Of a stretch of DNA of 64,000 nt, positions 1,863 through 62,617 are shown piece after piece; the stretch's first letter is position 1, and every line of letters starts with the position of its first letter. Source of the DNA: Minisyncoccota bacterium. GTDB taxonomy: Bacteria > Patescibacteriota > Minisyncoccia > Phycocordibacterales > UBA9973. Where the stretch lies: NCBI GenBank assembly GCA_041659205.1, contig JBAZYS010000002.1, positions 1,627-65,626 of the forward strand. Reading direction: 5' to 3'. Below the pieces are notes generated by a model. The model saw only the letters and a list, made by a program, of their open reading frames with translations. It had not been told where the DNA came from and made no database searches. The position numbers and the translations under genes are program-made.

Positions 1863-1904
1863 TTAACTTGCTTTGACATAAGTCGGAGTGAAAATAAAAA
1901 CATT

Positions 1905-2510
1905 ATGAAAAAATTTGAAGAAAAAAAGTTTAACATAGGAGAATTAAAGGGTATTTCAACCAAGAATATCGAAGAACATTTGAAGCTATATGCTGGGTAT
2001 GTGAAAAATACAAATGGAGTAATAGAAAAAATAAGCGCTCTAAGCGAAGGGATGTTTAAAAATGGAGAAGACAATGCATATTTAATTGCTGAACTTTTCC
2101 GACGTTTTTCTTTTGAGTATAACGGAATGCGAAATCATGAAATTTATTTTTCTTCCCTTTCCGATGGGCCAAAAACGCTCAACCCTGAAAGTAAGCTAGC
2201 TAAAAAGATAAATGAGGATTGTATGTCTCTCGAAATATTTTTGATGGGTTTCAAAAACATAGCAATGACTCGCGGAGTAGGCTGGGCTGTACTTTGGTAT
2301 GACAAAAAAGACAACAGGCTCTTAGCTTCCTGGATAGATGAACAACATCTTGGTCAGCTAAATGGCGCGACACCGATTCTTATGCTTGATATGTGGGAAC
2401 ATGCTTTCGTTTCGGACTATCAACCAAGTGGTAAAAAACAATATGTTGAGGACTTTTTTGAAAATCTCAACTGGGAAGTTGTTGAAGAAAATTTCAAAAA
2501 CGCAATCTAA
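1905..2510 (+). CDS. sodA: Fe/Mn superoxide dismutase
   Basis: 201 aa with an SOD-like N-terminus (LKGISTKNIEEHLKLYAGYV) and a C-terminal DMWEHAF metal-site motif. Confidence 0.75.
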   Translation: MKKFEEKKFNIGELKGISTKNIEEHLKLYAGYVKNTNGVIEKISALSEGMFKNGEDNAYLIAELFRRFSFEYNGMRNHEIYFSSLSDGPKTLNPESKLAKKINEDCMSLEIFLMGFKNIAMTRGVGWAVLWYDKKDNRLLASWIDEQHLGQLNGATPILMLDMWEHAFVSDYQPSGKKQYVEDFFENLNWEVVEENFKNAI

Positions 2511-2588
2511 AAAATCTAGAATAATATTTCTAAAAACTCTTCCTCGTCATAACTTTTACTCAACACGCATAATTTTCTACTGAAAATT

Positions 2589-2650
2589 TGCTACGCTCGG
2601 CTACCCGCCTGCGCAATGTTTCTTAAAAGTTACGACTTCAACGAGTTTTT
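2589..2650 (+). repeat. About 60 nt element (TTGCTNCGCTCGGCTACCCGCCTGCGCAA...CAACGAGTTTT), copy 1; an inverted copy lies at 54993-55053
   Basis: A 22-mer, gctcggctacccgcctgcgcaa, has its exact reverse complement at 55033-55054 with similar flanks. Both copies sit immediately 3' of a gene in sense orientation (sodA, murI). Confidence 0.6.
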
Positions 2651-2663
2651 GGTTTTGAAATAT

Positions 2664-2746
2664 AACTTTTGGAGGGGGTTTTGAGGCTGGCGAGTCGAAA
2701 ACTTCAGGGTTTTTTAAGCTTCAAAAAATCCGTACCCGAAAAAAGT
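2664..2746 (+). repeat. Structured intergenic element, copy 1 of the 85-nt family
   Basis: AACTTTTGGAGGGGGTTTTGAG-[GGCTGGCGAGTC]-GAAAACTTCAG-[GGTTTTTTAAGCTTCAAAAAATCC]-GTACCCGAAAAAAGTT; shares its conserved single-stranded blocks and covarying stems with the six other copies. Confidence 0.7.
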
Positions 2747-2773
2747 TGATATTTCAAATAAAAAAAACTACTC

Positions 2774-4255
2774 TTAAAAAGAGTTTTTTATGTTTCTCCA
2801 AAAAAGTTTGTAAATAAAATAGGCGTAAATAATTAACGTGAGGAAAAGTGGAAAATCTGGGAAAGAAAAAGCTGCAAAGGGCAGACGTGAGAAAAAGCTA
2901 ATCACACTGAGCTCGTAATGTAAAAATAAATACGAAACATAACCAAAAGGTATAGCAAATACATAATAAATAAGTCCTGCAAAGCCGGTGATAAAACCAA
3001 GCATCATCGTAAATGGAATAAACGGAAGAATTAAAACATTTGCAGGTAAAGCTACAAGCGATAAATTCCCCATTTTATAAAGAATAAAAGGAAAGACGAA
3101 AACATAAGCAGCAGAGGTGACAGAAACAATATCTCGTAATTGGAAACGCTCAGGTACCCACATAAAATATTTCTCAATTCTTGGGGCGAGGAATATCACA
3201 GCAACTGTCGCGATAAAGGAAAGCTGAAAAGATACATCATACACAAGCAAAAAAGGGTTAAGAACAATCATAGATACACCAGCAAGGATAAGAGCCCGCG
3301 CAACATCATAATTTCTACCAGTCGCGCGGGCAATAAGCGCAAGCGTTGCCATTGTCCCCGCCCGAATAGCTGTAGAGCTTCCCCCAGTCATTAAAATAAA
3401 CAATATAATTGCTAAAATACCCATTCCAATACTAAAATTTAATGAAACGAAAGATATTCGAGCAAATAATTTCATAAACCATTCAGCAACAATCGTCACA
3501 TTATATCCAGACAAAGCAACGATATGTATCGTTCCAGTATTTACAAAACTTTGTCTCAGGGACTGATCGAAGGAAGACTTTTCCCCTAGGATAAGCCCAC
3601 CCATAAGCAAACTCTCGGGTCCCGTTATAGCCAAATTCATTTTCTCTAAAAACTTTTCTTTAGCAAAAAACAAAGCACCTTGAATTTTATTGCCATTCCC
3701 CCGAGAAACAATCTCAACTTTGGGATAACTCATCACGTATAAAATTCCATCTTTGCGAAGGTAATTTATATAATCAAACTCTTTACCAGTATCTGTAATA
3801 AAATTCTCTGGCTTTTTTAAAACACCTGTAAAATTTATCTCATCTCCATATTTGTAACTTTCATCCAAACTAGTTGATAACAAAATCTCAGTTTTTACGA
3901 AGGGCCGACCTTCGTAAGCTACTTCTACAGTTAATTGCTGATTGTTTTCTTTAATACTTGGCTCATCTACAATCTCTCCTCTTAAAGCAACTTTTTGCCC
4001 AACATGGGACTCAAAAACCGCTGGGCTCTCAACATCCACCATATTAAATCGAAAAATTCCTAAACAAAAAGTTAAAATAAAAATAGAAATTAATATTCCC
4101 CAATTATTTTTCGAAATGAGAGTAAAAAACAAGAGCAAGGCTAAGCAAATTATGAGAAGTAAAACAACAAAATATAAATTTACAAATAAAAAAGAGCGTA
4201 TTAACACTCCCAATAAAAACCCAAAACAAATTGTATAAAAAACTTTATCCCGCAT
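2774..4255 (-). CDS. comEC: ComEC/Rec2-like competence membrane protein; membrane channel part only
   Basis: 493 aa polytopic membrane protein with a competence-domain-like core and a long extracytoplasmic N-terminal segment. The MBL-domain half is a separate gene at 978-1862. Confidence 0.6.
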   Translation of the reverse strand: MRDKVFYTICFGFLLGVLIRSFLFVNLYFVVLLLIICLALLLFFTLISKNNWGILISIFILTFCLGIFRFNMVDVESPAVFESHVGQKVALRGEIVDEPSIKENNQQLTVEVAYEGRPFVKTEILLSTSLDESYKYGDEINFTGVLKKPENFITDTGKEFDYINYLRKDGILYVMSYPKVEIVSRGNGNKIQGALFFAKEKFLEKMNLAITGPESLLMGGLILGEKSSFDQSLRQSFVNTGTIHIVALSGYNVTIVAEWFMKLFARISFVSLNFSIGMGILAIILFILMTGGSSTAIRAGTMATLALIARATGRNYDVARALILAGVSMIVLNPFLLVYDVSFQLSFIATVAVIFLAPRIEKYFMWVPERFQLRDIVSVTSAAYVFVFPFILYKMGNLSLVALPANVLILPFIPFTMMLGFITGFAGLIYYVFAIPFGYVSYLFLHYELSVISFFSRLPFAAFSFPDFPLFLTLIIYAYFIYKLFWRNIKNSF

Positions 4256-4829
4256 TTAAAACCTCATTAATTTTCTTAATTACTTCAGGTGCATTAACGT
4301 CTTCTAACTCCATATAAAAACCTTCTTTATTTTCAGCATATTCAACCTTTTTAAAACCAAACGATTCGGCAATGCTAATCGATGTTGCATTAGTAGCTTT
4401 TACCCCAAGCATAACTTTTTTCCCTCCTCGCCTTTGTATCTCTTCTAAACGTGTTGCAAGTATTTTTTTTCCGACTCCTCCTCGAGAATCGGGTTTTACA
4501 TACCCAGAATAAATGTACCAATCCCCCTTTTCCTCTCTTCTCTTTGCAAGACCTATTCCAATAGGCTTAGAATCACTCCAAGCCAATACACCAAATGCAC
4601 TATCCCCAGATAATTTTTCTTTCCATTCATTCTCACTCTCAGCTTCCTCCTCTTTAATTATTTCTTCCCTTCCTTCTCTTGTAATTCCAAACATTTCTGC
4701 ATCATCACCTTTACACATTATGACTCTCAACTCTTTACAGACCATCCAATCATCTGACTTAGCTATTTCTACTCTTACCTCCAACTTTTCTTGGTTAGAT
4801 TGTTTATTTTTAAAAGGATTCTCTGCCAT
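4245..4829 (-). CDS. GNAT family N-acetyltransferase
   Basis: 194 aa; the C-terminal half has an acetyl-CoA-binding-like RRGGKKVMLGV motif followed by a GNAT beta-strand pattern. Confidence 0.5.
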   Translation of the reverse strand: MAENPFKNKQSNQEKLEVRVEIAKSDDWMVCKELRVIMCKGDDAEMFGITREGREEIIKEEEAESENEWKEKLSGDSAFGVLAWSDSKPIGIGLAKRREEKGDWYIYSGYVKPDSRGGVGKKILATRLEEIQRRGGKKVMLGVKATNATSISIAESFGFKKVEYAENKEGFYMELEDVNAPEVIKKINEVLNAG

Positions 4830-4833
4830 AGAT

Positions 4834-5319
4834 TTATTTTTTATTTTTAAGCTCTACTGGATCATCGTCGGCAAAACTGGTGGCGATAATGTCTGCTCGT
4901 TCATTGTATTTGTCTCCGTTGTGACCTTTTACATAAGTCCATTTGGGTTTAAATTCTTCCGTAAGGGTGAAAAGCTCTTCCCAAAGTTCTTTATTCATAA
5001 CAGGTTTCTTGGCAGCATTGCGCCAATTATTTCTTTGCCAATTAAAAATCCATTCAGTGATTCCCAAAATTACATATTTTGAATCTGAAACAATCTCTAT
5101 GTGTGCGTTTATTTTGCCTGCCTGCGCAGACAGGTGTTTCTTGAGATATTTTAAGGCTCCTATTGGTGCAGAGAGTTCCATTTGATTATTCGTAGCATGA
5201 CATTCTCTTCCTCCAATTTCGAAATGTTCTTTACCATAAAGAAATACAGCGCCCCATCCAGCAGGCCCTGGATTACCCTTTGCCGCACCATCGGTATAGA
5301 TTTGGATTTTGTGCTCCAT
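4834..5319 (-). CDS. rnhA: Ribonuclease HI
   Basis: MEHKIQIYTDGAAKGNPGPAGWG...TNNQMEL...VSDSKYV...KGHNGDKYNERAD: RNase H catalytic DEDD pattern. Confidence 0.8.
   Translation of the reverse strand: MEHKIQIYTDGAAKGNPGPAGWGAVFLYGKEHFEIGGRECHATNNQMELSAPIGALKYLKKHLSAQAGKINAHIEIVSDSKYVILGITEWIFNWQRNNWRNAAKKPVMNKELWEELFTLTEEFKPKWTYVKGHNGDKYNERADIIATSFADDDPVELKNKK
5117..5134. repeat. GC-rich palindrome CCTGCCTGCGCAGACAGG, a member of a dispersed family, lying inside rnhA
   Basis: Near-perfect 18 bp palindrome in an AT-rich gene. It encodes SAQAG in frame. Related copies are at 36735-36754, 58288-58305, 2603-2616 and 55033-55046. Confidence 0.6.
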
Positions 5320-5321
5320 AT

Positions 5322-7055
5322 TTATAGTATATCAACTATTCTTAATCTTAGCTCTTCCCTGCCTCGAAACCTTGATAAATCAAAAGTGGTTAATAAATTT
5401 ACATTAATACCTTCAGCTAAAGTCTTTCCAAAAGAATCATGATTAGAAAAAAAAGAAATTGCCGTGGCTTTATGCTTATTTATATCTGAAAATTGAATTT
5501 CCAAATGCTCCCCAGATCCATTTTTACCAAACTTTTTTATTTTCTCAATTTTCACATTATCAAAAAGAAAAACGGGTTTCGAATTCCCGAGGCCAAAAGG
5601 AGCAAGCTTTTCTATTTCTCGCCAATTTTTCATATTTACGATACTTAAATCAGACTTCACGTCATAAGTTATTTCATCTTTTATAATATCCCTTTTCACT
5701 TTATGATAAGAAAGAGACAAGGCTTCTTCTAAGAAATGAATCTTCTCATTGTGCACAGTAAAACCTCCTGCAAGCTCATGTCCACCGAAATCGATAAATG
5801 ATTCAGAAGTTTCTGTCATTAGTTCTACGACTGACACAGAGCCATTACTACGGCAAGAACCCTTGATACAATCATTTTCGTCCTTTCCCCAAACAAAAAC
5901 GGGTTTCTTGTATTCATCAGAAATTTCCCCCGCCACTAAGCCTAAAATACCGACTCGCCAGCTTGGGTTACCTATTACTATCACTTCCTTCATTTCCCTC
6001 TCTTCAAATTTTTTATTCACTTCACGCATAATACTCTTCACAATGGTTTTTCTGTCGTCATTTATTTTTGATAAATGATCTGCGAGTATTCCAGCCTCTA
6101 CGTCATCATTCGTAGAAAGGAGTTCATAAGCCCGCATCGGGTCATCCATTCGAGATGCGGCATTCAAGCGCGGAGCAATCATAAAACCAATGTCATCCTC
6201 TGCTAAATATTTCTGCTCAATTTTCATTTTCGCAAGAAGTTTCTGCAATCCTGGGCGTGGAGACTTTCGTAAAACTTTCATCCCGAAATAAACCATCGCC
6301 CTATTTTCACCCGTGAGTGGAACCATATCAGAAAGCGTGGCAAGTCCTGCCATGTCGAGCATCCATTTTTCCTGCCCATCTTTTATTTTGAAATACTCTC
6401 CATACTTTTTTATAAAACCTTGTGCAAGTTTAAAAGCGACACCTGCCCCACAGAGCATCTTTTCACTATATTCATCTACTTTTGGATTCAAAATCGCATA
6501 AGCCCGAGGTAAAACTGCATGGGGAATGTGGTGATCAGTAATTATTACATCAATACCATCAACTTCTGCTTGAGCTACTTCTTCCACTGCCGTAATACCC
6601 AAATCAATAGTTATTAATAATTTCACCCCGTTTTTTGCAAACTGTTTTATCGCATCTAAATTTAGTCCATACCCTTCAGAGTTTCTCTGAGGAATATAAA
6701 CCTCATAATTTTTATATTTCAATAACTTAAACAAATCATTTAAAATAACCGCTCCAGGAATACCATCACAATCATAGTCAGCATAGATAACTATCTTCTC
6801 CTTTGCTTCCATTGCTTCAAATATTCGCACACAAGCGCGCTCCATATCCTTCATTTGGAAGGGGTCATTGAAATCTCTTGCATAGTCTGGGTTCAAAAAA
6901 ATCTCAGCATCTGCCGAGTTAGTAATGCCTCTTTTTTCTAACAATATCCGTAATAATTCCCCATACTTTTGCATGAATTGAATTTTAACATAAATAGAGT
7001 ACAATATAGAAAGTTTTTTGAAATATGAATTTTGAAGGGGTTTCGAGCCCGACAA
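5322..7055 (-). CDS. recJ: Single-stranded-DNA-specific exonuclease RecJ; the true start is possibly the internal Met near 6973
   Basis: DHH family motifs (DYDCDGIPGA, DHHIPH) and a DHHA1-like C-terminal region. Confidence 0.8.
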   Translation of the reverse strand: MSGSKPLQNSYFKKLSILYSIYVKIQFMQKYGELLRILLEKRGITNSADAEIFLNPDYARDFNDPFQMKDMERACVRIFEAMEAKEKIVIYADYDCDGIPGAVILNDLFKLLKYKNYEVYIPQRNSEGYGLNLDAIKQFAKNGVKLLITIDLGITAVEEVAQAEVDGIDVIITDHHIPHAVLPRAYAILNPKVDEYSEKMLCGAGVAFKLAQGFIKKYGEYFKIKDGQEKWMLDMAGLATLSDMVPLTGENRAMVYFGMKVLRKSPRPGLQKLLAKMKIEQKYLAEDDIGFMIAPRLNAASRMDDPMRAYELLSTNDDVEAGILADHLSKINDDRKTIVKSIMREVNKKFEEREMKEVIVIGNPSWRVGILGLVAGEISDEYKKPVFVWGKDENDCIKGSCRSNGSVSVVELMTETSESFIDFGGHELAGGFTVHNEKIHFLEEALSLSYHKVKRDIIKDEITYDVKSDLSIVNMKNWREIEKLAPFGLGNSKPVFLFDNVKIEKIKKFGKNGSGEHLEIQFSDINKHKATAISFFSNHDSFGKTLAEGINVNLLTTFDLSRFRGREELRLRIVDIL

Positions 7056-7107
7056 GGCGAGAACTTCAGGACCTTTTACGCTTCAAAAGGTCCGTACCGA
7101 AAAAATT
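7028..7107 (+). repeat. Structured intergenic element, copy 2
   Basis: AATTTTGAAGGGGGTTTCGAG-[CCCGACAAGGC]-GAGAACTTCAG-[GACCTTTTACGCTTCAAAAGGTCC]-GTACCGAAAAAATT. Its P3 stem carries compensatory CC/GG changes relative to other copies. Confidence 0.7.
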
Positions 7108-7126
7108 TATATTTAAAAAACTTTAT

Positions 7127-7519
7127 ATGAACGATTGTATTTTTTGTAAAATTTCAAACGGAGAAATTCCAAAAGAGTTTGTTTATCAAGATGAAAAATT
7201 TTTGGTTTTTCTTGATATCAAACCAGTCACGAACGGGCATCTAATAATAATTCCCCGAAAACATATTGTCTGGATGCAAGAAGCAGAGGATGAAACAATT
7301 TCTGAAATATTTAAACTAACAAAAAAACTAATGCTTGTGTTAAAAAAGGCATTTACTTGTGACTATGTGCAAGAAACTGTAGTGGGCAATGAGGTCCCAC
7401 ATTTTCATATCCATTTAATACCAAGATACAAGGATGACAATTTACCCAATCTCCCAACAAAAACTTACAAAGAAAAAGAAGAAAAAGAGGTTCTAGAAAA
7501 AATTACCCAAGTGCTTTAA
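7127..7519 (+). CDS. HIT-family (histidine triad) hydrolase
   Basis: The C-terminus has the HFHIHLIP histidine triad. The ORF-track start at 7025 would read through repeat copy 2, so the Met at 7127 (MNDCIFCKISNGEIPKEF) is preferred. Confidence 0.75.
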   Translation: MNDCIFCKISNGEIPKEFVYQDEKFLVFLDIKPVTNGHLIIIPRKHIVWMQEAEDETISEIFKLTKKLMLVLKKAFTCDYVQETVVGNEVPHFHIHLIPRYKDDNLPNLPTKTYKEKEEKEVLEKITQVL

Positions 7520-8618
7520 TCCCCGGCAGTGTTCCACTTGCCAGAAAATCAAGCGTCGCTCCTCCCCCAGTAGAAACAAAAGAAAATTTGTTTTCGATTT
7601 TAAGCTTAGTTATCAAAACAACAGTATCTCCACCTCCGACAATACTTTCAGCCCTTGAAGCTGCAACGAGTTTTAATATTTTTTTAGTACCCTCGGCTCC
7701 ACCATCTTCATATCTACCAAGCGGTCCATTCCAAAGAATAAATTTTGCATTTTTTATTAATGTCTCTATCCTTTTTACTGTTTTCTCACCAATATCTAAA
7801 ATGGTCTCATCTTTTTTAACCTCTTCGGCCTTTACGGTAATCAATTTATTCCCTGACTTCACCGTTAAATCAATCGGTAAAATTAATTTTTTATTTTTTA
7901 ATAATTTTGAAATACCATAATTTGTATCACCTACAAGAGATTGTCCAACTTCATACCCTTTCGCTTTTAAAAAATCATCCGCTAATGCTCCACCAACGAA
8001 AACATGATCTGCCAGCTTTAGATACTTATTAATTAAAGGCATTTTGGTGGAAAACTTCGCGCCACCTAAAATAAATAAAAATGGGTGTTTTGTATTTTTA
8101 AATGCATGAGACAAATTTTCAACTTCTTTTTCTAACTGAAAACCAGCAAACCCTGGCAAAAGCTTCGGCAAAAGGACTATAGAAGCATCTTCTCTATGAG
8201 AAACAGGGAAAGCATCGTTAATATATATATCTGCCAATTTTGCTAACTCCCCGGCAAAAATTTTACTGCAAGCTTGTTCCCCTTTATTATTTCTCAAATT
8301 TTCCAGCAAAACAACTTCTCCATTTTTCATCTCTCCAACAATTTTTTGAACCTTTAAACCAATTATTTCAGGCACAAATTTATTTTTTATATATTTATTT
8401 AATACTTTTGAAACTGGAAGCAGAGTTTCACCGCCTTTACCAAGGTGAGCAATTAGAACTACCCTTGCACCACTTTTTTGGAGAAATTTAATAGTGGGTA
8501 GTGTTTTAATGATTCTAAAATCATCTACAACTTTCCCATTCTTTATTGGAAGATTAAAATCTACTCGTAAAAGTACAGTTTTTCCTTTTAAATTTTTTAT
8601 TTGCCTAATGTTTCGCAT
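7503..8618 (-). CDS. pgk: Phosphoglycerate kinase
   Basis: 371 aa; N-terminal KTVLLRVDFNLP and the overall PGK layout. Confidence 0.85.
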   Translation of the reverse strand: MRNIRQIKNLKGKTVLLRVDFNLPIKNGKVVDDFRIIKTLPTIKFLQKSGARVVLIAHLGKGGETLLPVSKVLNKYIKNKFVPEIIGLKVQKIVGEMKNGEVVLLENLRNNKGEQACSKIFAGELAKLADIYINDAFPVSHREDASIVLLPKLLPGFAGFQLEKEVENLSHAFKNTKHPFLFILGGAKFSTKMPLINKYLKLADHVFVGGALADDFLKAKGYEVGQSLVGDTNYGISKLLKNKKLILPIDLTVKSGNKLITVKAEEVKKDETILDIGEKTVKRIETLIKNAKFILWNGPLGRYEDGGAEGTKKILKLVAASRAESIVGGGDTVVLITKLKIENKFSFVSTGGGATLDFLASGTLPGIKALG

Positions 8619-9379
8619 ATTCTTACAATTTCTAAAAACTTTTTTGGGTCAAGTGATGCCCTTCCTGCAAGGAGCCCCTCAATACTTCCATTTTTTAAAA
8701 AACTCTCTGCATCTTTTTCATTCACTGAACCCCCATAAACAATTCTCATTTGAGTTACTTCTGGCCCAAACTTATCAGACAAAACTTTTCGGATAAAAAT
8801 AACCATCTCTCTACAGTCGTCTGGAGTAGCATCTTTGCGGTCTATTGTTGTAGAAATCGCCCAAATTGGCTCATAAGCAATAATTATTTTTGATATACTT
8901 ATCTTAGAAATACCAGACAAACATTCTTCGAGTTGAACTTTAACTAAATTAAAATAACCATGATTTTCATCACGAACACTTTCACCCACACACAATATTG
9001 GAATAAGGCCTGAAGCAAGCGCACCTTTAATTTTCTTATTTATTTCAATATTACTCTCCCCCATCGCTCGTCTTTCGGAATGTCCTAAGATGACATACTT
9101 AGCTCCCATATCATAAAGCATCCCCGTTGAAACTTCTCCCGTAAAAGCACCAACGTCTCCAGGATAAGCATCTTGAGCTCCTAATGATATTTTTTTAGAT
9201 ATTTTTTTTAATTTTTCTATATATATAAACGGTGTACAAGCAACTACTTCTGTTTTTTTAAGACTAGAGATACCTTTTGCAATACTAGAAAATAACTTTT
9301 CTGCTTCTTTTAACGACCTCGGATTCATCTTCCAATTACCTATAATTATATTTTTTCTCATGTTCGTATAGTATAACAC
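8597..9379 (-). CDS. tpiA: Triosephosphate isomerase
   Basis: IIIGNWKMN...ILGHSERR...AYEPIWAIST...YGGS motifs. The 3' end overlaps the pgk start by 22 nt. Confidence 0.85.
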   Translation of the reverse strand: MLYYTNMRKNIIIGNWKMNPRSLKEAEKLFSSIAKGISSLKKTEVVACTPFIYIEKLKKISKKISLGAQDAYPGDVGAFTGEVSTGMLYDMGAKYVILGHSERRAMGESNIEINKKIKGALASGLIPILCVGESVRDENHGYFNLVKVQLEECLSGISKISISKIIIAYEPIWAISTTIDRKDATPDDCREMVIFIRKVLSDKFGPEVTQMRIVYGGSVNEKDAESFLKNGSIEGLLAGRASLDPKKFLEIVRICETLGK

Positions 9380-56927: not shown

Positions 56928-58541
56928 TCAGGCTCCGGCCTTGCGATCGGGTCCCTTGCCCGATCTCACCCCATGCTTCTCGTGAAGCTTTGCGACTTCT
57001 TCTTCTTCAAGCTCTTCTTTTTTCTCTTTTCCACGTAGGCCGAGGACTTTGAGCTCAGCATCACCAAGCATATTTAATGATTTTACTAATCCAGATAAAT
57101 GACTTACCGTATTTTTCTCTGGCGCATCCAAAACTTCCTCTAAAAGAGCGTTTAAAATCCAGCCCATTCTAGGTCCAGGAGTAATTCCCAGCTCTTTAAT
57201 CATATATTCTCCATTAATCTTCAGTTGTCCCACAGAAATAGGGTCACGAAGAGCTTCTTCTATCATCGCGAAGTATTTTCTTAGCCGATAAGGTGCTTCT
57301 TTTTTATTCATTCCTACCCTATCGCACTCACGGACATTCATCAATGTCCAAATATTTTCTTTACCAACTTTCACAACAATTCTTCGCACCGCAGAAAGCG
57401 TAATTAATTCAGTGTCCGAAAAAAACATATGCATACGCACAAGTTTTTCCACAAGATCAATTTCTTTTTTAGGGAATTTTAATCTCTCCATTATTTTTTT
57501 TCCCATCCTTGCGCCAATAACTTCATGACCATAAAAAGTATATTTCTTTTTTCCAGAACCCGCCTCTGCAAGCCTTCTGGATCTAGGTTTTCCAATATCA
57601 TGGAAAAGAGCAGAAAGCCTTATTTCTAAAGGCCAATTTTTGTCTGTAGCATGCTGCAAAGCATGCAGTAAATGATTCCAAACATCATAGATATGCTCAC
57701 CGGATTGTTCACATCCGATTCCCTCTTCCAGCTCTGGAATAATATTTTTTAATAAATTAAATTTCTGCAACATTACAATTCCACTTGCAGAATTTGGTGA
57801 CATAATTATTTTTACAAACTCATCACGAATTCTTTCTTCCGATATTTTTTTTAACAATTCAGAATTTTTTAAAATACTTTCCATCGTCTCATGTTCTACA
57901 GAAAAATTTAATTGGCAAGAGAAACGGACAGCCCTCAGCATTCGAAGAGCATCTTCTGTAAAACGGTCATCTGGGTTTCCTACTGCTTTTAAACTCTTGT
58001 CCTTAATGTCCTTTAGGCCATCAAACAGGTCAATTAACTGTCCTTTAGACTTGCCCGCCGAATTGGAGGGATTTAAGGCTAAGGCATTAACAGTGAAATC
58101 CCTTCTTTTTAGGTCATCTTCCAGCTTATCACTGAATTTTACCTCGTCAGGATGCCTAAAATCACTATATTTTGTCTCAGTTCTATATGGTGTAACCTCA
58201 ATTATCTTATATTCTGATGTTCCATGTGAAACATCATCCAATGGTGTTTCACGAGAAACGTTATTGGAAAGTGTTTCGCATGGAACACCTGCCTGCGCAG
58301 GCAGGCACACCCCTACTGTCCCGAAGGTATTCTCATAGACCGTCTTTTCAAAAAGGCTAATTATCTGCTCTGGCTTGGCGTTAGTTGTAATGTCCCAATC
58401 CTTTGGTTCCTTGTCCATCAAAAGATCTCGGACACATCCACCGACAAGGTACACCTCAAAACCAGCTTTCTCTAATGTAACTGTTACATGTGAAACTTCC
58501 TTAGGAATTTTCGCTATTAAATTTTTAATTGTTAAGTCCAC
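56928..58541 (-). CDS. cca: CCA-adding enzyme / tRNA nucleotidyltransferase with an HD domain; GTG start 8 nt after tRNA-Gly
   Basis: GGCVRDLLMDKEPKDWD ... TEDALRMLRAVRF ... HD motif. Carries an in-frame roughly 30 aa insertion encoded by palindromic repeats at 58218-58305. Confidence 0.8.
   Translation of the reverse strand: MDLTIKNLIAKIPKEVSHVTVTLEKAGFEVYLVGGCVRDLLMDKEPKDWDITTNAKPEQIISLFEKTVYENTFGTVGVCLPAQAGVPCETLSNNVSRETPLDDVSHGTSEYKIIEVTPYRTETKYSDFRHPDEVKFSDKLEDDLKRRDFTVNALALNPSNSAGKSKGQLIDLFDGLKDIKDKSLKAVGNPDDRFTEDALRMLRAVRFSCQLNFSVEHETMESILKNSELLKKISEERIRDEFVKIIMSPNSASGIVMLQKFNLLKNIIPELEEGIGCEQSGEHIYDVWNHLLHALQHATDKNWPLEIRLSALFHDIGKPRSRRLAEAGSGKKKYTFYGHEVIGARMGKKIMERLKFPKKEIDLVEKLVRMHMFFSDTELITLSAVRRIVVKVGKENIWTLMNVRECDRVGMNKKEAPYRLRKYFAMIEEALRDPISVGQLKINGEYMIKELGITPGPRMGWILNALLEEVLDAPEKNTVSHLSGLVKSLNMLGDAELKVLGLRGKEKKEELEEEEVAKLHEKHGVRSGKGPDRKAGA
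58218..58305. repeat. Composite palindromic insertion inside cca: three 14 bp palindromes (GTTCCATGTGAAAC, GTTTCACGAGAAAC, GTTTCGCATGGAAC) with 27-28 bp phasing, then the 18 bp perfect palindrome CCTGCCTGCGCAGGCAGG
   Basis: Read directly from the sequence. Translates in frame as ...CLPAQAGVPCETLSNNVSRETPLDDVSHGTSE. Confidence 0.7.
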
Positions 58542-59079: not shown

Positions 59080-59120
59080 GTTTCACGTGAAACGAAAATA
59101 GACGATGTTCCATGTGAAAC
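59080..59120. repeat. Two 14 bp palindromes (GTTTCACGTGAAAC perfect; GTTCCATGTGAAAC) with 27 bp phasing, upstream of yraN
   Basis: Same family as the array inside cca. A further copy, GTTTCTCGTGAAAC, at 59309-59322 lies inside yraN. Confidence 0.7.
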
Positions 59121-59530
59121 CCATTAAAATGCCTAAAGTTTTTACATCTAACACACAAAAAACTGGAGAAATTGGAGAAAATATAGCTGCAAAGTTTCTC
59201 ATGAAACATGGTTTTTCAATTCTAGATAGAAACTATACAAAAAAATGGGGTGAAATTGATATAGTCGCCGAAAAAGCCTGCAGACTATATTTCATTGAAG
59301 TTAAAAGCGTTTCTCGTGAAACGCTGAGCAATGAGACATTGAATAGTTATAGGCCAGAAGATAATATGCACCCCTGGAAACTTAAACGCTTGTCACGGAC
59401 AATCCAAACATACCTTCTGTCAGAAAAAGTCTCAGATGAAAAGGAATGGCAAGTAGATTTATTGGTAGTGTTTCTTGATACAAAAAACAAAAAAGCAAAA
59501 ATAAAAGTAGTCAGTGATATTATTTTATGA
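59105..59530 (+). CDS. yraN: YraN/UPF0102 family endonuclease (start may be the Met at 59129)
   Basis: GEIGENIAAKFLMKHGFSILDRNYTKKWGEIDIVAEK...YFIEVKS: the UPF0102 pattern. Confidence 0.65.
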   Translation: MFHVKPIKMPKVFTSNTQKTGEIGENIAAKFLMKHGFSILDRNYTKKWGEIDIVAEKACRLYFIEVKSVSRETLSNETLNSYRPEDNMHPWKLKRLSRTIQTYLLSEKVSDEKEWQVDLLVVFLDTKNKKAKIKVVSDIIL

Positions 59531-59552: not shown

Positions 59553-59626
59553 CGGGCTGTAGTATACCGGTAGTACAAGTGCTTTGGGAGCATTTAGACT
59601 GGGTTCAATTCCCAGCAGCCCGACCA
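59553..59626 (+). tRNA. tRNA-Pro (TGG) with encoded CCA
   Basis: Acceptor CGGGCTG/CAGCCCG, anticodon loop TTTGGGA, T-arm CTGGGTTCAATTCCCAG, 3' ACCA. Confidence 0.75.
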
Positions 59627-59640
59627 GGTGAGTAAATAAG

Positions 59641-59711
59641 CGGGATTAGTTTAATGGTAAAACGTCAGTTTTCCAAACTGAGGTTGGGAGTTCGATTCTC
59701 CCATCCCGCAC
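59641..59711 (+). tRNA. tRNA-Gly (TCC)
   Basis: Acceptor GCGGGAT/ATCCCGC, anticodon stem TCAGT/ACTGA with loop TTTCCAA, T-arm GGGAGTTCGATTCTCCC. Confidence 0.75.
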
Positions 59712-60461
59712 ATGATTTTCACTTATTTATATGCATTTGCGAGCGTTATAATAGTTAGTCTTATCTCTTTAGTTGGAGTTATTTCGCTATCTCTTAAAGA
59801 GGAAACTTTGAGAAAATATATTAGTTTATTTATCAGCCTTGCCGTTGGGGCACTTCTCGGAGATGCATTTATTCACATAGTGCCAGTAGCATTTAAAAGT
59901 TCTCCAAACTCTAATCTTCCAAGCCTATTAATCATCGCAGGAATTCTTTTATTCTTTATAATTGAAAAGTTTTTTCACTGGCACCATCACGGAGAAGATA
60001 AAGAAGAAGCTCATATTCACCCAGTAGGGAAGTTATTACTCTTCACAGATAGTTTTCATAATTTCTTAGATGGTGTGATCATCGGTGTAAGTTTCCTAGT
60101 CAGTGTTCCTGTCGGCATCGCCACCACAATAGCTGTAATTTTACATGAAATTCCTCAAGAGATAGGCGACTTTGCTGTCCTTGTTCATTCTGGTTATTCA
60201 GTCAAAAAAGCAATCTGGCTTAATTTTATTTCTGCCCTCGCTGCTATTTTGGGACTTATAGTTGCTCTAATCTTTGGCAACGTAGCTGCTGCTTTCTCTT
60301 TGTGGACTCTCCCAATTGCTGCTGGTGGATTTATTTATATTGCAGTCGCTGATCTAATCCCAGAACTTCAAAAGACAAAAGAAGCTAAATATTCTCTCCT
60401 ACAAATCCTCGCAGTCGTCATTGGAATTCTAGCTATGCTTGCTTTAACCTTACTTGAATAA
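59712..60461 (+). CDS. zupT: ZIP-family divalent metal transporter
   Basis: HEIPQEIGDFAVL motif and eight TM helices. The ATG immediately follows tRNA-Gly(TCC). Confidence 0.75.
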   Translation: MIFTYLYAFASVIIVSLISLVGVISLSLKEETLRKYISLFISLAVGALLGDAFIHIVPVAFKSSPNSNLPSLLIIAGILLFFIIEKFFHWHHHGEDKEEAHIHPVGKLLLFTDSFHNFLDGVIIGVSFLVSVPVGIATTIAVILHEIPQEIGDFAVLVHSGYSVKKAIWLNFISALAAILGLIVALIFGNVAAAFSLWTLPIAAGGFIYIAVADLIPELQKTKEAKYSLLQILAVVIGILAMLALTLLE

Positions 60462-60701
60462 AGTTTAACAATCATACTAAGATAAAATCTCCTTATTTAT
60501 ATAGTTATTTTTTAATATCTATTTGACATTTCAAATTTAGCATGCTATATTTTGTACCTACAAATATAGTTCTTTAAAATTTATTTTTGACCATTTCGGC
60601 AAAGGGTGCAGGACGTTTTATAAAAAATATCATCGTGCATCATTTGCCGAAATGGCATCTCGCTACGTGAAGTAGTATGAGATTTTTCCCAGGAGGGAAA
60701 C

Positions 60702-61340
60702 ATGAAAGTTACAATCAAACGCGGAATAGGACAGCCGGGCAAGCTCTGGACAGGGTCCAGGGACTTTTTCCCTGGGGCAGACCTGTTCATCCCCGGCTTG
60801 GAACACACTTCTCTCGGCAAAGCAGAGGGCTTCGGCGACAGAGTTGTCGAAGTCAATATCATCGAAAACTGGTCAGTGTCAGGGGCCACCACGCGTCGTC
60901 TCTGGGTTGTAAACAGAGAAGTCACGTTCACGCCTGAAGAAGCTGCTTTGGCTCCCGTCCTTTACATTGGGACCGGCGGGGTCGGCTCATTGCCTGACCC
61001 GAGCGCAGGACTACGGGAAGAGGATTTGGCTCTCCTGAAGGTAGCTTTATGGAACTGGTCGGGGAGGATCGGCGGCTTTGCCATTCTCAATCCCATCACC
61101 GTTCTCTCAGGATATTACAGCCAAAGTGATCTACGTGATCTACCCAAGGTCACGGAGGAATTCAAGTGGGTTCAGACATATGCTGGGAACGTTGTTTCAG
61201 AATATGTCTTGCTGGAGTTCCGGGGAGGAAACCTCCATCCTAGACACATACCGCCATTCACCATCTGGCCGAAAGCAACCTTGTCACCTCCTGAAAAGAA
61301 AAGATTGGAGGAGACTTTTCGACGAGGAATTCGGAAATAA
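60702..61340 (+). CDS. Hypothetical protein (212 aa) of the GC-rich insertion; no recognisable motif
   Basis: ORF with GC-rich codon usage and SD AGGAGGG 6 nt upstream. The overlapping alternative-frame ORFs are artefacts of the GC content. Confidence 0.5.
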   Translation: MKVTIKRGIGQPGKLWTGSRDFFPGADLFIPGLEHTSLGKAEGFGDRVVEVNIIENWSVSGATTRRLWVVNREVTFTPEEAALAPVLYIGTGGVGSLPDPSAGLREEDLALLKVALWNWSGRIGGFAILNPITVLSGYYSQSDLRDLPKVTEEFKWVQTYAGNVVSEYVLLEFRGGNLHPRHIPPFTIWPKATLSPPEKKRLEETFRRGIRK

Positions 61341-61375
61341 TTAGTGATATCGTTCGGGGGTCGCAATGTGGCCCC

Positions 61376-61428
61376 CAGCTGTTTCGAGATGTGTATCTCG
61401 ACTGATGAGTCCTAAAGGACGAAACAGA
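61376..61428 (+). ncRNA. Type III hammerhead ribozyme
   Basis: cugu-U|UCGAGA-ugugua-UCUCGA-CUGAUGA-GUCC-uaaa-GGAC-GAAA-caga. All 11 invariant core nucleotides are present; helix I is 6 bp, helix II 4 bp with a UAAA loop, helix III 4 bp and open, with the A15.1-U16.1 pair. Predicted cleavage after U61383 (GUU triplet). Confidence 0.6.
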
Positions 61429-61445
61429 AAATTCCAATTAGAAAA

Positions 61446-61484
61446 ACAGCCCCGTCACTCACGAGTGACGGGGCTGTTTTATTT
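61446..61484 (+). terminator. Strong rho-independent terminator after the hammerhead
   Basis: CAGCCCCGTCACTC-ACGA-GTGACGGGGCTG followed by TTTTATTTT. Confidence 0.8.
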
Positions 61485-61498
61485 TATATAAATTTATT

Positions 61499-62617
61499 TT
61501 AATTTGCCCAAGACCAGTCTGTGCCTGGATTTTTAGCATTGAAAACTTCAAAGTGGATGTGGGGTCCAGTTGAATGCCCCGTAGAGCCCACGAGGCCGAT
61601 AACTTCTCCCTGAGTGACCTCTGCACCAGTGTGGGTAATTACTTTACTCATGTGAGCGTAGAGAGTTTTAGTACCATTTGGGTGTTGAACGATTACCATA
61701 TTCCCATATCCTCCACTCCAGCCTGTTTTTGCAATAAGTACTACTCCTGAAGCAGAAGCATAAATCGGTGTACCTATCGGTGCTCCAATATCTATTCCAC
61801 GGTGTCCTGGACCATGGAGACCTTGAGTTTTCCTAATTCTAGGACCGGTAGGCAAAGGGTCTATAAAGTACCCGGAAACGCTTTGGATTGGATGTGTAGC
61901 ATAATAATTTTTATCTTTCGCAACAGCTGAACCGAGGTTTGCGGCAGGCTTGTCGCCTCCTTCATCAATCATTTCGCCCCCAGGAATCATAATCTTATCT
62001 CCAATAGCAAGCTTGGTATCTTCATCAAAACCGTTAAACTGAATGATATCTGATGCATCTACTTTATAAAGAGCGGCAATCCCTTTCAATGTCTGTCCTT
62101 TTTTGACTGTATGCTCTGTTCCAGATATAGGCAAAATAAATAGCACATCACCCTCTACGAGTTTTGTGCCTTTCTTTAAATCATTCGCTGACAAAACAGT
62201 ACTGACTGAAACTTCAAATAACTTAGCAATTGAAGCAACAGTATCACCTTTTCTGACTACATAGACACTTGTGTCTTCTGGAGAAACATCTGGAATATCC
62301 TTTCCATCAGATACACCCAGCGGACCAGTTGCAGGGACAAGGGAATTGTTGGAAACAATATTGGAATTGGAATTTGTATCAGTATTGCTCTTTCTATCTT
62401 CAACTATTGAAGCGGAAGAAACATTAGCCTGCAAAAGGGCTATATTTTGAGAGTTGCTACCTATTTTAGGAAGACTTACTGTATTTGGACTTGTTTCGGC
62501 ATAAGCCTGGTCCCCGACAAAGAGAGAAGAGAAGGAAGAGAAGAAATCTGCCTGCACTTTTCGGGTAGGCACAAGAAGAGTCCCAAACAACAACGTAAAG
62601 GCTAGAAAAGATCTCAA
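61499..62617 (-). CDS. Secreted LysM-LysM-M23 peptidoglycan endopeptidase
   Basis: Signal peptide, two LysM repeats (YVVRKGDTVASIAKLF, HTVKKGQTLKGIAALY) and M23 motifs (HRGIDIGAP ... GSTGHSTGPHIHFEV). Confidence 0.8.
   Translation of the reverse strand: MRSFLAFTLLFGTLLVPTRKVQADFFSSFSSLFVGDQAYAETSPNTVSLPKIGSNSQNIALLQANVSSASIVEDRKSNTDTNSNSNIVSNNSLVPATGPLGVSDGKDIPDVSPEDTSVYVVRKGDTVASIAKLFEVSVSTVLSANDLKKGTKLVEGDVLFILPISGTEHTVKKGQTLKGIAALYKVDASDIIQFNGFDEDTKLAIGDKIMIPGGEMIDEGGDKPAANLGSAVAKDKNYYATHPIQSVSGYFIDPLPTGPRIRKTQGLHGPGHRGIDIGAPIGTPIYASASGVVLIAKTGWSGGYGNMVIVQHPNGTKTLYAHMSKVITHTGAEVTQGEVIGLVGSTGHSTGPHIHFEVFNAKNPGTDWSWAN

Follow-up and report, generated by a model that had tools for sequence, protein, structure and literature searches.

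How does a compact, GC-rich gene with a ribozyme at its 3′ end come to stand between two convergent housekeeping genes of a Patescibacteria chromosome, and what might the ribozyme do there? The question arises in a stretch of 64,000 nucleotides (GenBank assembly GCA_041659205.1, contig JBAZYS010000002.1, positions 1,627 to 65,626; hereafter the window), which belongs to a Patescibacteria genome and has a GC content of 0.38. The segment at issue, about 1 kb long, separates a ZIP zinc transporter gene from a LysM/M23 peptidase gene and holds a 212-amino-acid (aa) open reading frame (ORF), a type III hammerhead ribozyme and an intrinsic terminator. An earlier note on the window had proposed a small mobile or selfish cassette, framed by a 10 bp target-site duplication and lying next to a tRNA hot spot for integration. 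Our best explanation, to which we assign a probability of about 0.6, sees in the segment an accessory gene cassette, self-contained and acquired by horizontal transfer, whose mRNA 3′ end would be set by ribozyme cleavage. It builds on what can be observed directly: an insertion, a foreign composition, a full set of expression signals, a covarying hammerhead, and a unit that recurs at other loci.

A gene unit inserted between ZIP and M23

The ZIP protein was used to scan metagenome contigs, which yielded 80 loci (loci carry L numbers below). The earlier note had proposed a search of related genomes for an empty site, and such sites exist: in 11 related loci (ZIP 67-75% identical) the ZIP and M23 genes are convergent and their stop codons lie only 1-63 bp apart. 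As the same interval measures 1037 bp in the window, the window holds a true insertion, and a GC-rich gene unit of about 1 kb was inserted between ZIP and M23. Its left edge is the ZIP stop codon (60461), and its right edge falls somewhere between 61428 and 61498. The segment, its parts and its flanks are as follows.

59553-59711: tRNA-Pro and tRNA-Gly(tcc) genes
59712-60461, + strand: host ZIP zinc transporter gene, the left flank (Pfam Zip, E 8e-48)
60462-61498: inserted intergenic segment, from the ZIP stop to that of the convergent M23 gene
60523-60551, + strand: putative cassette promoter, TTGACA, 17 nt spacer, TATATT, with an extended -10 (ATGCTATATT); 11/12 consensus positions plus TG
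60564-60575, + strand: conserved leader block ATATAGTTCTTT, an identical 12-mer at the same leader position in L017
60577-60587: left copy of the AT-rich direct repeat AAATTTATTTT, inside the transcribed leader and not a boundary
60591-60655, + strand: leader hairpin 1, 23 nt arms (60591-60613 / 60633-60655) and an AU-rich apical loop
60657-60683, + strand: leader hairpin 2, present in the minimum free energy (MFE) and centroid structures
60685-60700, + strand: leader hairpin 3 (UUUCCC-AGGA-GGGAAA), which holds the Shine-Dalgarno (SD) sequence AGGAGGG at 60691-60697
60702-61340, + strand: 212-aa ORF, orphan family
61356-61376, + strand: P0 hairpin GGGGGUCGC-AAU-GUGGCCCCC, 2 nt upstream of hammerhead stem III
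61379-61427, + strand: type III hammerhead ribozyme (Rfam RF00008, descriptor match, covariation)
61443-61487: bidirectional intrinsic terminator, 17-18 bp stem at 61443-61480, A tract before and U tract after
61490-61500: right copy of the AT-rich repeat, overlapping the M23 stop codon
61499-62617, - strand: host LysM/M23 peptidase gene, the right flank (Pfam Peptidase_M23 and LysM)

The composition of the segment is foreign to its surroundings. GC content climbs from 0.26-0.32 (60400-60700) to 0.49-0.57 (about 60600 to 61300), and GC at third codon positions (GC3) is 0.55 in the 212-aa ORF against a host mean of 0.30. So abrupt a change could also betray a contaminating GC-rich fragment or an assembly chimera, the latter an outcome that the earlier note had named as fatal to its proposal. 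An independent Logan assembly of SRR18595301, however, reproduces 59690-61408 at 100% identity, from the tRNA end through the ZIP gene, the left junction and the ORF into the hammerhead; because it spans the left junction in this way, it argues against a chimera. Moreover, the AT-rich promoter and leader run on into the GC-rich ORF without a break, and the layout of AT-rich flanks around a GC-rich core is repeated in the independent assemblies of L003, L007, L010 and L017. An assembly artifact is, in our estimation, scarcely credible.

The neighborhood on the ZIP side reads tRNA-Gly(gcc), tRNA-Arg, a UPF0102-family gene, tRNA-Pro, tRNA-Gly(tcc), ZIP, the inserted segment and LysM/M23. In the empty-site relatives, to whose ZIP genes that of the window is 70-75% identical, the four-tRNA cluster, ZIP and M23 are syntenic (the order tRNA-Arg/Gly/Pro/Gly-ZIP-M23 is intact), and in several of them the end of tRNA-Gly(tcc) coincides with the ZIP start. 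Since synteny is intact at the empty sites and the ZIP gene lies between, the tRNAs are ancestral neighbors rather than the insertion site. The insertion does not abut a tRNA gene, and the tRNA cluster is untouched; the tRNA genes that had suggested an integration hot spot are where they were said to be, and their part as a hot spot falls away.

The same distinction applies to the direct repeat. AATTTATTTT is indeed present at 60578-60587 and 61491-61500, and the word common to the two sites is really 11 nt long (60577-60587 and 61490-61500), not 10. A small autonomous mobile or selfish element, with the repeat as its 10 bp target-site duplication and the tRNAs as its hot spot, would account for a repeat at both coordinates, for the real insertion and for the related units at unrelated loci. 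However, two AT-rich zones of such size share an exact 10-mer in 8-12% of trials (P 0.08-0.12) and the word occurs seven times in the window, which bears out the caveat, entered in the earlier note itself, that such a repeat can arise by chance. The left copy, furthermore, falls 27-36 nt past the -10 box and has conserved leader blocks, shared with L017, on both sides; because it is internal to the unit in this way, the repeat is not a target-site duplication, and that candidate is ruled out. It is ruled out equally as the limit of the foreign DNA, for the AT-rich promoter (60523-60551) lies upstream of the left copy: the reported jump in GC is real, and the repeat is not its boundary.

No better boundary repeat emerged. 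A 21 nt imperfect repeat that brackets the unit from promoter to terminator (60496-60516 / 61483-61503) is non-significant (P 0.04-0.18), terminal inverted repeats of significance were not found within 60400-61650, and a transposase or integrase domain was not found in the segment, whose only credible ORF had no recombinase or transposase match in Pfam, NCBIfam or PHROG or by structure. With an ancestral tRNA cluster and the ZIP gene interposed as well, we consider an autonomous element of this kind very unlikely; the foreign insertion that the earlier note discerned stands without it.

The terminator qualifies the extent of the inserted DNA. Its arms, ACAGCCCCG and CGGGGCTGT, also form a terminator directly after the ZIP stop in the relative L028, and no other locus among about 100 has this paired-arm hairpin. 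The cassette terminator is therefore probably the pre-existing bidirectional ZIP/M23 terminator of the host, as judged from one relative, and on that assignment the inserted DNA would run from about 60462 to 61442, with the hammerhead at its 3′ edge.

Expression signals and the hammerhead ribozyme

The unit carries a full set of expression signals. The putative promoter, called by consensus matching, aligns in its -35 and its ATGCTATAYT -10 element with the cassettes in L017 and L003. When the homologous cassettes of L017, L003 and L004 were aligned with the window, the leader block ATATAGTTCTTT, upstream of the left repeat copy, proved to be followed by TTGACCA..TTTCG in both the window and L017. 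The leader spans about 150 nt and three hairpins, with a fold of -49 kcal/mol (z -6.0). The 13 bp perfect inverted repeat that the earlier note had seen upstream of the ORF is the core of hairpin 1, whose arms are 87% complementary, and hairpins occupy the matching leader position in L003, L004 and L017. Rfam assigned the leader hairpins to no other ribozyme or riboswitch family, matches to rox1 and to microRNAs being chance.

The strong SD, which is present before the 212-aa ORF as reported, is unusual for the window genome. An SD core precedes just 11% of 46 long ORFs of the window, and a TATAAT-like box stands immediately ahead of the start codon in many. Because most genes have no SD and carry such a box at most about 15 nt from the start codon, the mRNAs of the host genome appear to be predominantly leaderless, in agreement with the earlier note.

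Downstream of the ORF, the hammerhead and terminator that had been noticed from the letters of the window are both present. The ribozyme reads CUGU-U/UCGAGAU-GUGU-AUCUCGA-CUGAUGA-GUCC-UAAA-GGAC-GAA-ACAG, the slash marking the predicted cleavage site between U61383 and U61384. Stem I has 7 bp and the loop GUGU, stem II has 4 bp and the loop UAAA, and stem III has 4 bp and is open; because stems I and II are closed and stem III is open, the hammerhead is of type III. Type II is the more usual bacterial form. All core nucleotides are there, namely, CUGAUGA (61402-61408), GAAA (61421-61424), U61382 (position 16.1) and U61383 (H17). Judged by sequence and structure, the ribozyme is a type III hammerhead by definition, though not by the Rfam score cut-off. 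The active fold lies 1.8 kcal/mol above the MFE in the window and 0-3.4 kcal/mol above it over the four loci that have the ribozyme, and a linker of 15 nt separates the hammerhead from the terminator.

The case for the ribozyme gains from its recurrence. A strict structural descriptor for type III hammerheads, scanned over 769 kb of fetched DNA, found complete examples only in the window, L010/L011, L012 and L017, on the same strand as the family gene in each, so that the pairing of ORF and hammerhead that the earlier note had proposed to look for elsewhere recurs in L017, in L010/L011 and in the L012 island. The 80 family-free, ZIP-anchored loci contained none, and twenty shuffles of all sequences gave 5 matches in total. 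In 4/4 loci all stem positions are Watson-Crick or G-U pairs, and compensatory double changes are seen at pairs 2-4 of stem I, pairs 2-4 of stem II and pairs 2-5 of stem III, among four sequences only. The ribozyme lies between the last ORF and the terminator in the window, L010 and L017, and between two cistrons in L012.

A second constant accompanies the first, namely, a hairpin that abuts stem III with a gap of 0-2 nt in all four hammerhead loci. Given this arrangement, the 5′ cleavage product would end in the hairpin; the predicted product in these loci carries a hairpin of -10 to -18.5 kcal/mol and a tail of 4-7 nt. In a literature search, no paper linking hammerheads with Patescibacteria or with the Candidate Phyla Radiation (CPR) was found.

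A unit of about 1 kb with an ORF of about 200 aa and a type III hammerhead bears a superficial likeness to a viroid-like replicon. It might be a viroid-like or Obelisk-like RNA replicon copied into DNA, or a relative of one, or might move through a ribozyme-defined RNA intermediate, and such readings could appeal to the full cassette transcript, which is more structured than its shuffles (z -6.4), and to the place of the hammerhead at the 3′ edge of the inserted DNA. Yet the unit is chromosomal DNA with a DNA promoter that belongs to its conserved parts, it has one ribozyme and one polarity, its MFE structure is multibranched rather than rod-like, and a reverse transcriptase is absent. Type III cleavage, besides, leaves the ribozyme body downstream, so that an RNA ending at the cut cannot carry the ribozyme, and homologs of the ORF sit inside multigene DNA islands and on phage-like contigs. 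An origin or movement of this kind is highly improbable.

The protein family, its islands and the landing site

The 212-aa protein, which is identical to an NCBI protein named from a Candidatus Paceibacterota metagenome-assembled genome (MAG), belongs to a rare orphan family (49 clusters among 1.84 billion representatives in an exhaustive profile search). As the earlier note had said of its motifs, it resists assignment: neither the ORF nor its relatives (five homologs, 48 family members) matched Pfam, PHROGs, PADLOC or NCBIfam. An AlphaFold2 model built from 35 sequences (a run with 5 sequences was weak, with a predicted local distance difference test score of 64) confidently predicts a fold for the family, without a known match. 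Conserved motifs include GxPGKLWTG, GATTR(K/R), GGVGS, WNWSGRxGG and W..TY.G.TLSE. Most members, those on phage-like contigs included, also share CxC...CPxC, likely a zinc site, which in the subfamily of the window is replaced by serines (WS.VSG ... LSPPE, window residues ~57-60 and 193-199 in alignment A2), a change that looks like the loss of a structural zinc site. The window protein is a divergent member of this S-type, its closest relative (L001) being 43% identical. The phage early-region relatives and the ancestral four-Cys site suggest a function in nucleic-acid or host interaction.

Species-representative genomes gave six matches, each of them to a Patescibacteria MAG (Taylorbacteria, Nomurabacteria, Paceibacterota, Moraniibacteriota and two labelled only "Patescibacteria group"). 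At measurable loci the family ORF has a GC content 10-25 points above its flanks and a GC3 of 0.53-0.86, the two exceptions being the viral contig L098 (2 points) and L012, where the flank is itself within a GC-rich island (7 points). Members of clade A (L003, L004, L007, L010, L017) are 62-83% identical even though their hosts differ by class. This identity across classes, together with a GC content well above that of the flanks, supports horizontal spread of the family among Patescibacteria. The best analogue of the window is L017 (Moraniibacteriota), a solo cassette with AT-rich flanks and the same order of promoter, leader hairpin, family ORF, hairpin, type III hammerhead and terminator. 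That cassette is also flanked by 68 nt inverted repeats, 78% complementary (5590-5657 / 6912-6979; also 5575-5603 / 7051-7079), with near-palindromic units of about 110 nt on both sides; these could be host repeat elements or the ends of an element.

Distant Cys-type members occur on a 22.5 kb IMG/VR viral contig, and others lie within a RecT/DnaB/P22-like region. The contig, a small phage-like genome (L098/L102, IMGVR_UViG_3300044731_001608; 22,561 bp, 58% GC), encodes a 382-aa Cys-type member, a lysozyme and dense small ORFs, and several samples hold contigs of similar length (22.5-23.5 kb). IMG/VR gave no match to a hammerhead-specific DNA pattern; the P0044 scan of that database likewise returned nothing and, of those tried, only P0046 mapped to a viral contig.

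The company that the family keeps raises the prospect of a ribozyme-gated toxin or defense gene, in which RNA structure would keep a harmful protein under tight control in the manner of addiction or abortive-infection modules. One homolog adjoins a HEPN AbiU2 gene and an XRE-like helix-turn-helix gene, the L012 island has a Csx3-like ORF right after the hammerhead and a DEAD/ResIII helicase, the SD of the window is partly sequestered inside a hairpin, and the phage-encoded relatives could be counter-defense versions. On the other hand, PADLOC matched none of the five members tested, an antitoxin-like partner is not adjacent in the window, the near-consensus promoter implies constitutive expression, and the neighborhoods of the family genes are heterogeneous. 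We consider this function unlikely, though less so than the element and replicon readings set aside above.

The L012 island itself (L012:1-11600) is a co-oriented GC-rich tract of more than 11 kb in a Taylorbacteria MAG. Its hammerhead (839-893) comes after a 214-aa ORF, the Csx3-like ORF follows directly downstream (1046-1405), and the island also holds a Cys-type family member along with the helicase. As a family member or partner ORF the 214-aa ORF was rejected, being unrelated to either.

The most instructive comparison is L007, which is syntenic with the window (ZIP ~70% and M23 61-69% identical in the main tblastx segments) and carries a 7.3 kb island between the two genes (1878-9230). 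This island encodes a 1237-aa orphan protein and a divergent TrmB-like regulator, and it further holds a promoter with its long noncoding leader, a GC-rich 184-aa ORF and, next to M23, a clade A family gene; a further short ORF, read by eye, was not confirmed (the coordinates tried contain stop codons). Copies of 32 bp from the M23 3′ end flank it in direct orientation (1890-1921 / 9195-9226; 31/32 positions alike), and in the left one the original M23 stop survives, displaced to 4 nt past the ZIP stop. On sequence grounds, these repeats are the classic signature of site-specific integration into a gene 3′ end, and an integrase-like domain was not recognizable in the L007 island or in related islands. 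A third kind of occupant appears in L028, where an unrelated AT-rich minus-strand ORF with a Walker A motif (GPRQVGKT; L028:3300-4540) lies in the same gap, after the terminator whose arms match that of the window. Because the window, L007 and L028 hold three different occupants, the gap between ZIP and M23 is a landing site that has been used repeatedly.

One gene pair of the L007 island recurs. An orphan protein of 800-1240 aa and the divergent TrmB-like regulator stand upstream of GC-rich family genes in five loci:

L007:1997-6482: large protein and TrmB pair
L008:1-2284: large protein and TrmB pair
L010:2936-6146: large protein and TrmB pair
L014:1253-4904: large protein and TrmB pair
L015:799-4487: large protein and TrmB pair

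The large protein found no identity in Pfam, NCBIfam or the PDB, a GNAT domain being present in one member only. A long noncoding region separates TrmB from the first GC-rich ORF and lies downstream of a strong promoter. It is 76-94% identical between L008:2826-3623 and L014:4911-5917 in segments of up to 243 nt, with short matches in L012:1687-1781 and L007:7023-7069 and no Rfam match; it may be an undescribed large leader or noncoding RNA. Successive ORFs of the GC-rich islands are also separated by repeated intergenic hairpins of 40-64 nt, each island having its own type with copies 91-100% identical, and these may be processing or terminator modules:

L010:7832-7875, 9098-9141: repeated hairpin
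L014:6892-6931 / 7705-7744 and 6844-6907 / 8819-8882: repeated hairpins
L015:7407-7447 / 8541-8581: repeated hairpin

Might the cassette of the window, then, be the decayed remnant of such a site-specific island at the M23 3′ end, its left part and attL lost? As an origin scenario within our best explanation this is a real, if tentative, possibility. L007 is syntenic with its island flanked by the M23 3′-end repeat, its family gene occupies the M23-proximal end as in the window, and the large-protein and TrmB pair lies upstream of family genes in five islands. The window, however, has a single copy of the 32 bp core, at 61506-61537 inside M23, and neither a second copy nor any significant flanking repeat was found there; homologs of the large island protein and of TrmB were not found in the window either. 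The family proteins of the window and L007 are 33% identical against about 65-70% for the flanking genes, and the two occupants are for that reason not vertical orthologues, so that a different island variant would be needed. Besides, the insertion is not within the 32 bp core; it falls beyond the end of M23 coding and precedes the probably host-derived terminator, and the M23 C-terminus (SWAN and stop, read by eye) is the same as in the empty-site relative L025.

A bolder extrapolation would make the cassette the minimal form of an undescribed, Patescibacteria-specific mobile system, in which GC-rich modules ending in a hairpin and a type III hammerhead are carried or trans-mobilized by an element that lacks a recognizable integrase and targets the M23 3′ end through the 32 bp att core. 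The mobilizing element would comprise the TrmB-like regulator, the orphan 800-1240 aa protein and the long conserved noncoding leader. We hold this system and the element within it, taken together, to be quite unlikely, a shade more so than the defense function.

Two further features of the window stand apart from the cassette. A second compositional outlier at 21642-23941 consists of a minus-strand 419-aa ORF (GC 0.51, GC3 0.55; a sub-threshold match to CarboxypepD_reg domains) and a divergent 265-aa ORF (GC3 0.48, GGAGGA SD), separated by a spacer of 22% GC, and is probably another acquired pair. Near the tRNA cluster, the palindromic 14-mer GTTTCACGTGAAAC (at most 1 mismatch) occurs at 58246-58259, 59080-59093 and 59309-59322, which amounts to three copies in 1.1 kb against 0.01 expected; two of the three lie within coding sequence (the CCA-adding enzyme gene and the UPF0102 gene).

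A proposed ribozyme-defined mRNA end

How, then, might the cassette work? Transcription would start at the cassette promoter, and the hammerhead would cleave at U61383/U61384, co- or posttranscriptionally. The mRNA would then end in the P0 hairpin and a 7 nt tail with a 2′,3′-cyclic phosphate, and the ribozyme body and terminator would be freed with a 5′-OH. In this way the ribozyme would fix the mRNA 3′ end, and hence stability and expression level, independent of the landing site, and a gene that passes from one genome to another would be well served by a 3′ module of this sort. The gene may have originated as cargo of phage-like or integrative elements of Patescibacteria and may have arrived as the remnant of an L007-like island or by recombination after DNA uptake. 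A model of 3′-end processing is in keeping with the only functions yet proposed for hammerheads in bacteria, namely, the processing of mRNAs and polycistrons near phage genes (PMC3088659, PMC6765202). A part in 3′-untranslated region (UTR) or polycistronic mRNA processing has been suggested, not established, and the roles of genomically encoded bacterial hammerheads remain largely undefined (PMC6765202).

Several observations weigh against this explanation. The Rfam score of the hammerhead is 37.8 bits (E 2.5e-6, 1.1 kb searched), below the gathering score of 48.5, as are the scores in L010 (44.4 bits) and L012 (35.3 bits); at gathering thresholds Rfam returned four tRNAs only, the hammerhead surfacing just with E-value thresholds. 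Short stem III flanks, together with loop and flank positions that depart from the seed, appear to account for most of the shortfall. Stem III has just 4 bp and H17 is U instead of the optimal C, and the activity could therefore be weak. The ribozyme is also facultative: the 3′ regions of L001 and L003 are complete without one, and none was found in L004, L007, L008, L014, L015 or L016. In L012 the hammerhead follows an ORF unrelated to the family, which ties the ribozyme to the type of island rather than to the family ORF. The host origin of the terminator is supported by one relative only (L028). As to the vehicle, the family was not found in GenBank phages by tblastn, the Patescibacteria-type alignment (A3) had no match in IMG/VR, and neither a vehicle or recombinase for the window copy nor an att duplication was found.

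Comparison with known systems sharpens what is distinctive here. Bacterial hammerheads cluster near prophage and integrase genes, and the accessory genes that they flank include ardA (PMC3088659). Like the triple hammerhead around ardA in Agrobacterium tumefaciens and other prophage or island hammerheads, that of the window is a canonical hammerhead in untranslated or intercistronic RNA, with an acquired accessory gene, presumed mRNA processing and a link to mobile or phage-like DNA (PMC3088659). It differs in its Patescibacteria host and compact type III form, in the fixed layout of hairpin and hammerhead that recurs with one orphan GC-rich family or island, and in that the window copy is a single-gene unit without a recognizable prophage.

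A second parallel lies in the phage morons of Hendrix and colleagues, which are independent promoter-gene-terminator units of deviant composition inserted between genes. The cassette likewise has a putative promoter of its own and a deviant composition, the genes on either side are intact, and distant relatives occur on phage-like contigs. In contrast to a moron, it is chromosomal and sits between housekeeping genes, no prophage genes were recognized next to it, its terminator is probably that of the host, and it adds a ribozyme and a long structured leader. From its layout, the unit would work like a phage moron combined with a prophage-type hammerhead.

Other resemblances are looser. Integrative islands target and regenerate a gene 3′ end and leave att repeats, classically at tRNA or tmRNA genes and with tyrosine integrases. 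The L007 island matches that pattern in its 32 bp M23 3′-end repeat and in the original gene end displaced to the far side, whereas an integrase was not recognized in it or in related islands, and the window insertion shows no att duplication, its position being just beyond the end of M23 coding. Obelisks, reportedly described by Zheludev et al. in 2024 as viroid-like RNAs, some of them with type III hammerheads, share with the cassette the unit size of about 1 kb, an ORF of about 200 aa without a known fold and the ribozyme; the cassette differs from them in its chromosomal DNA and DNA promoter, in a fold that is not rod-like and in its one ribozyme of one polarity, and an Oblin-like motif was not seen by eye. 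An integron gene cassette, finally, consists of an ORF and an attC hairpin. Ours is also a small single-gene unit with an imperfect hairpin, but that hairpin lies 5′ of the ORF in the transcribed leader, the unit has its own promoter, and there is no cassette array; an integrase was not recognized in the cassette or in the proteins tested, the rest of the window not having been screened for intI. The segment was rejected as a transposon or insertion sequence and as a tRNA-targeted island, integron cassette or Obelisk-like element, since defining features looked for in each case were absent.

What the locus offers is a compact, repeatable layout, in which a hairpin, a type III hammerhead and a terminator make up the 3′ UTR of one orphan family. 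Natural variants with the ribozyme (L017) and without it (L003), in mostly leaderless genomes, offer a clean system in which to ask whether a 3′-UTR ribozyme sets the mRNA end and the expression of genes acquired horizontally. These are apparently the first hammerhead examples reported for CPR/Patescibacteria. To the biology of the CPR the locus further adds a confidently predicted fold without a match, evidence of gene flow within the phylum, and a hot spot of integration where one island shows att-type repeats but lacks a known integrase. Were the cassette the minimal form of a dedicated mobile system, it would point to new recombination machinery in CPR bacteria, and the ribozyme would be no passenger but an integral part of the life cycle of the mobile unit.

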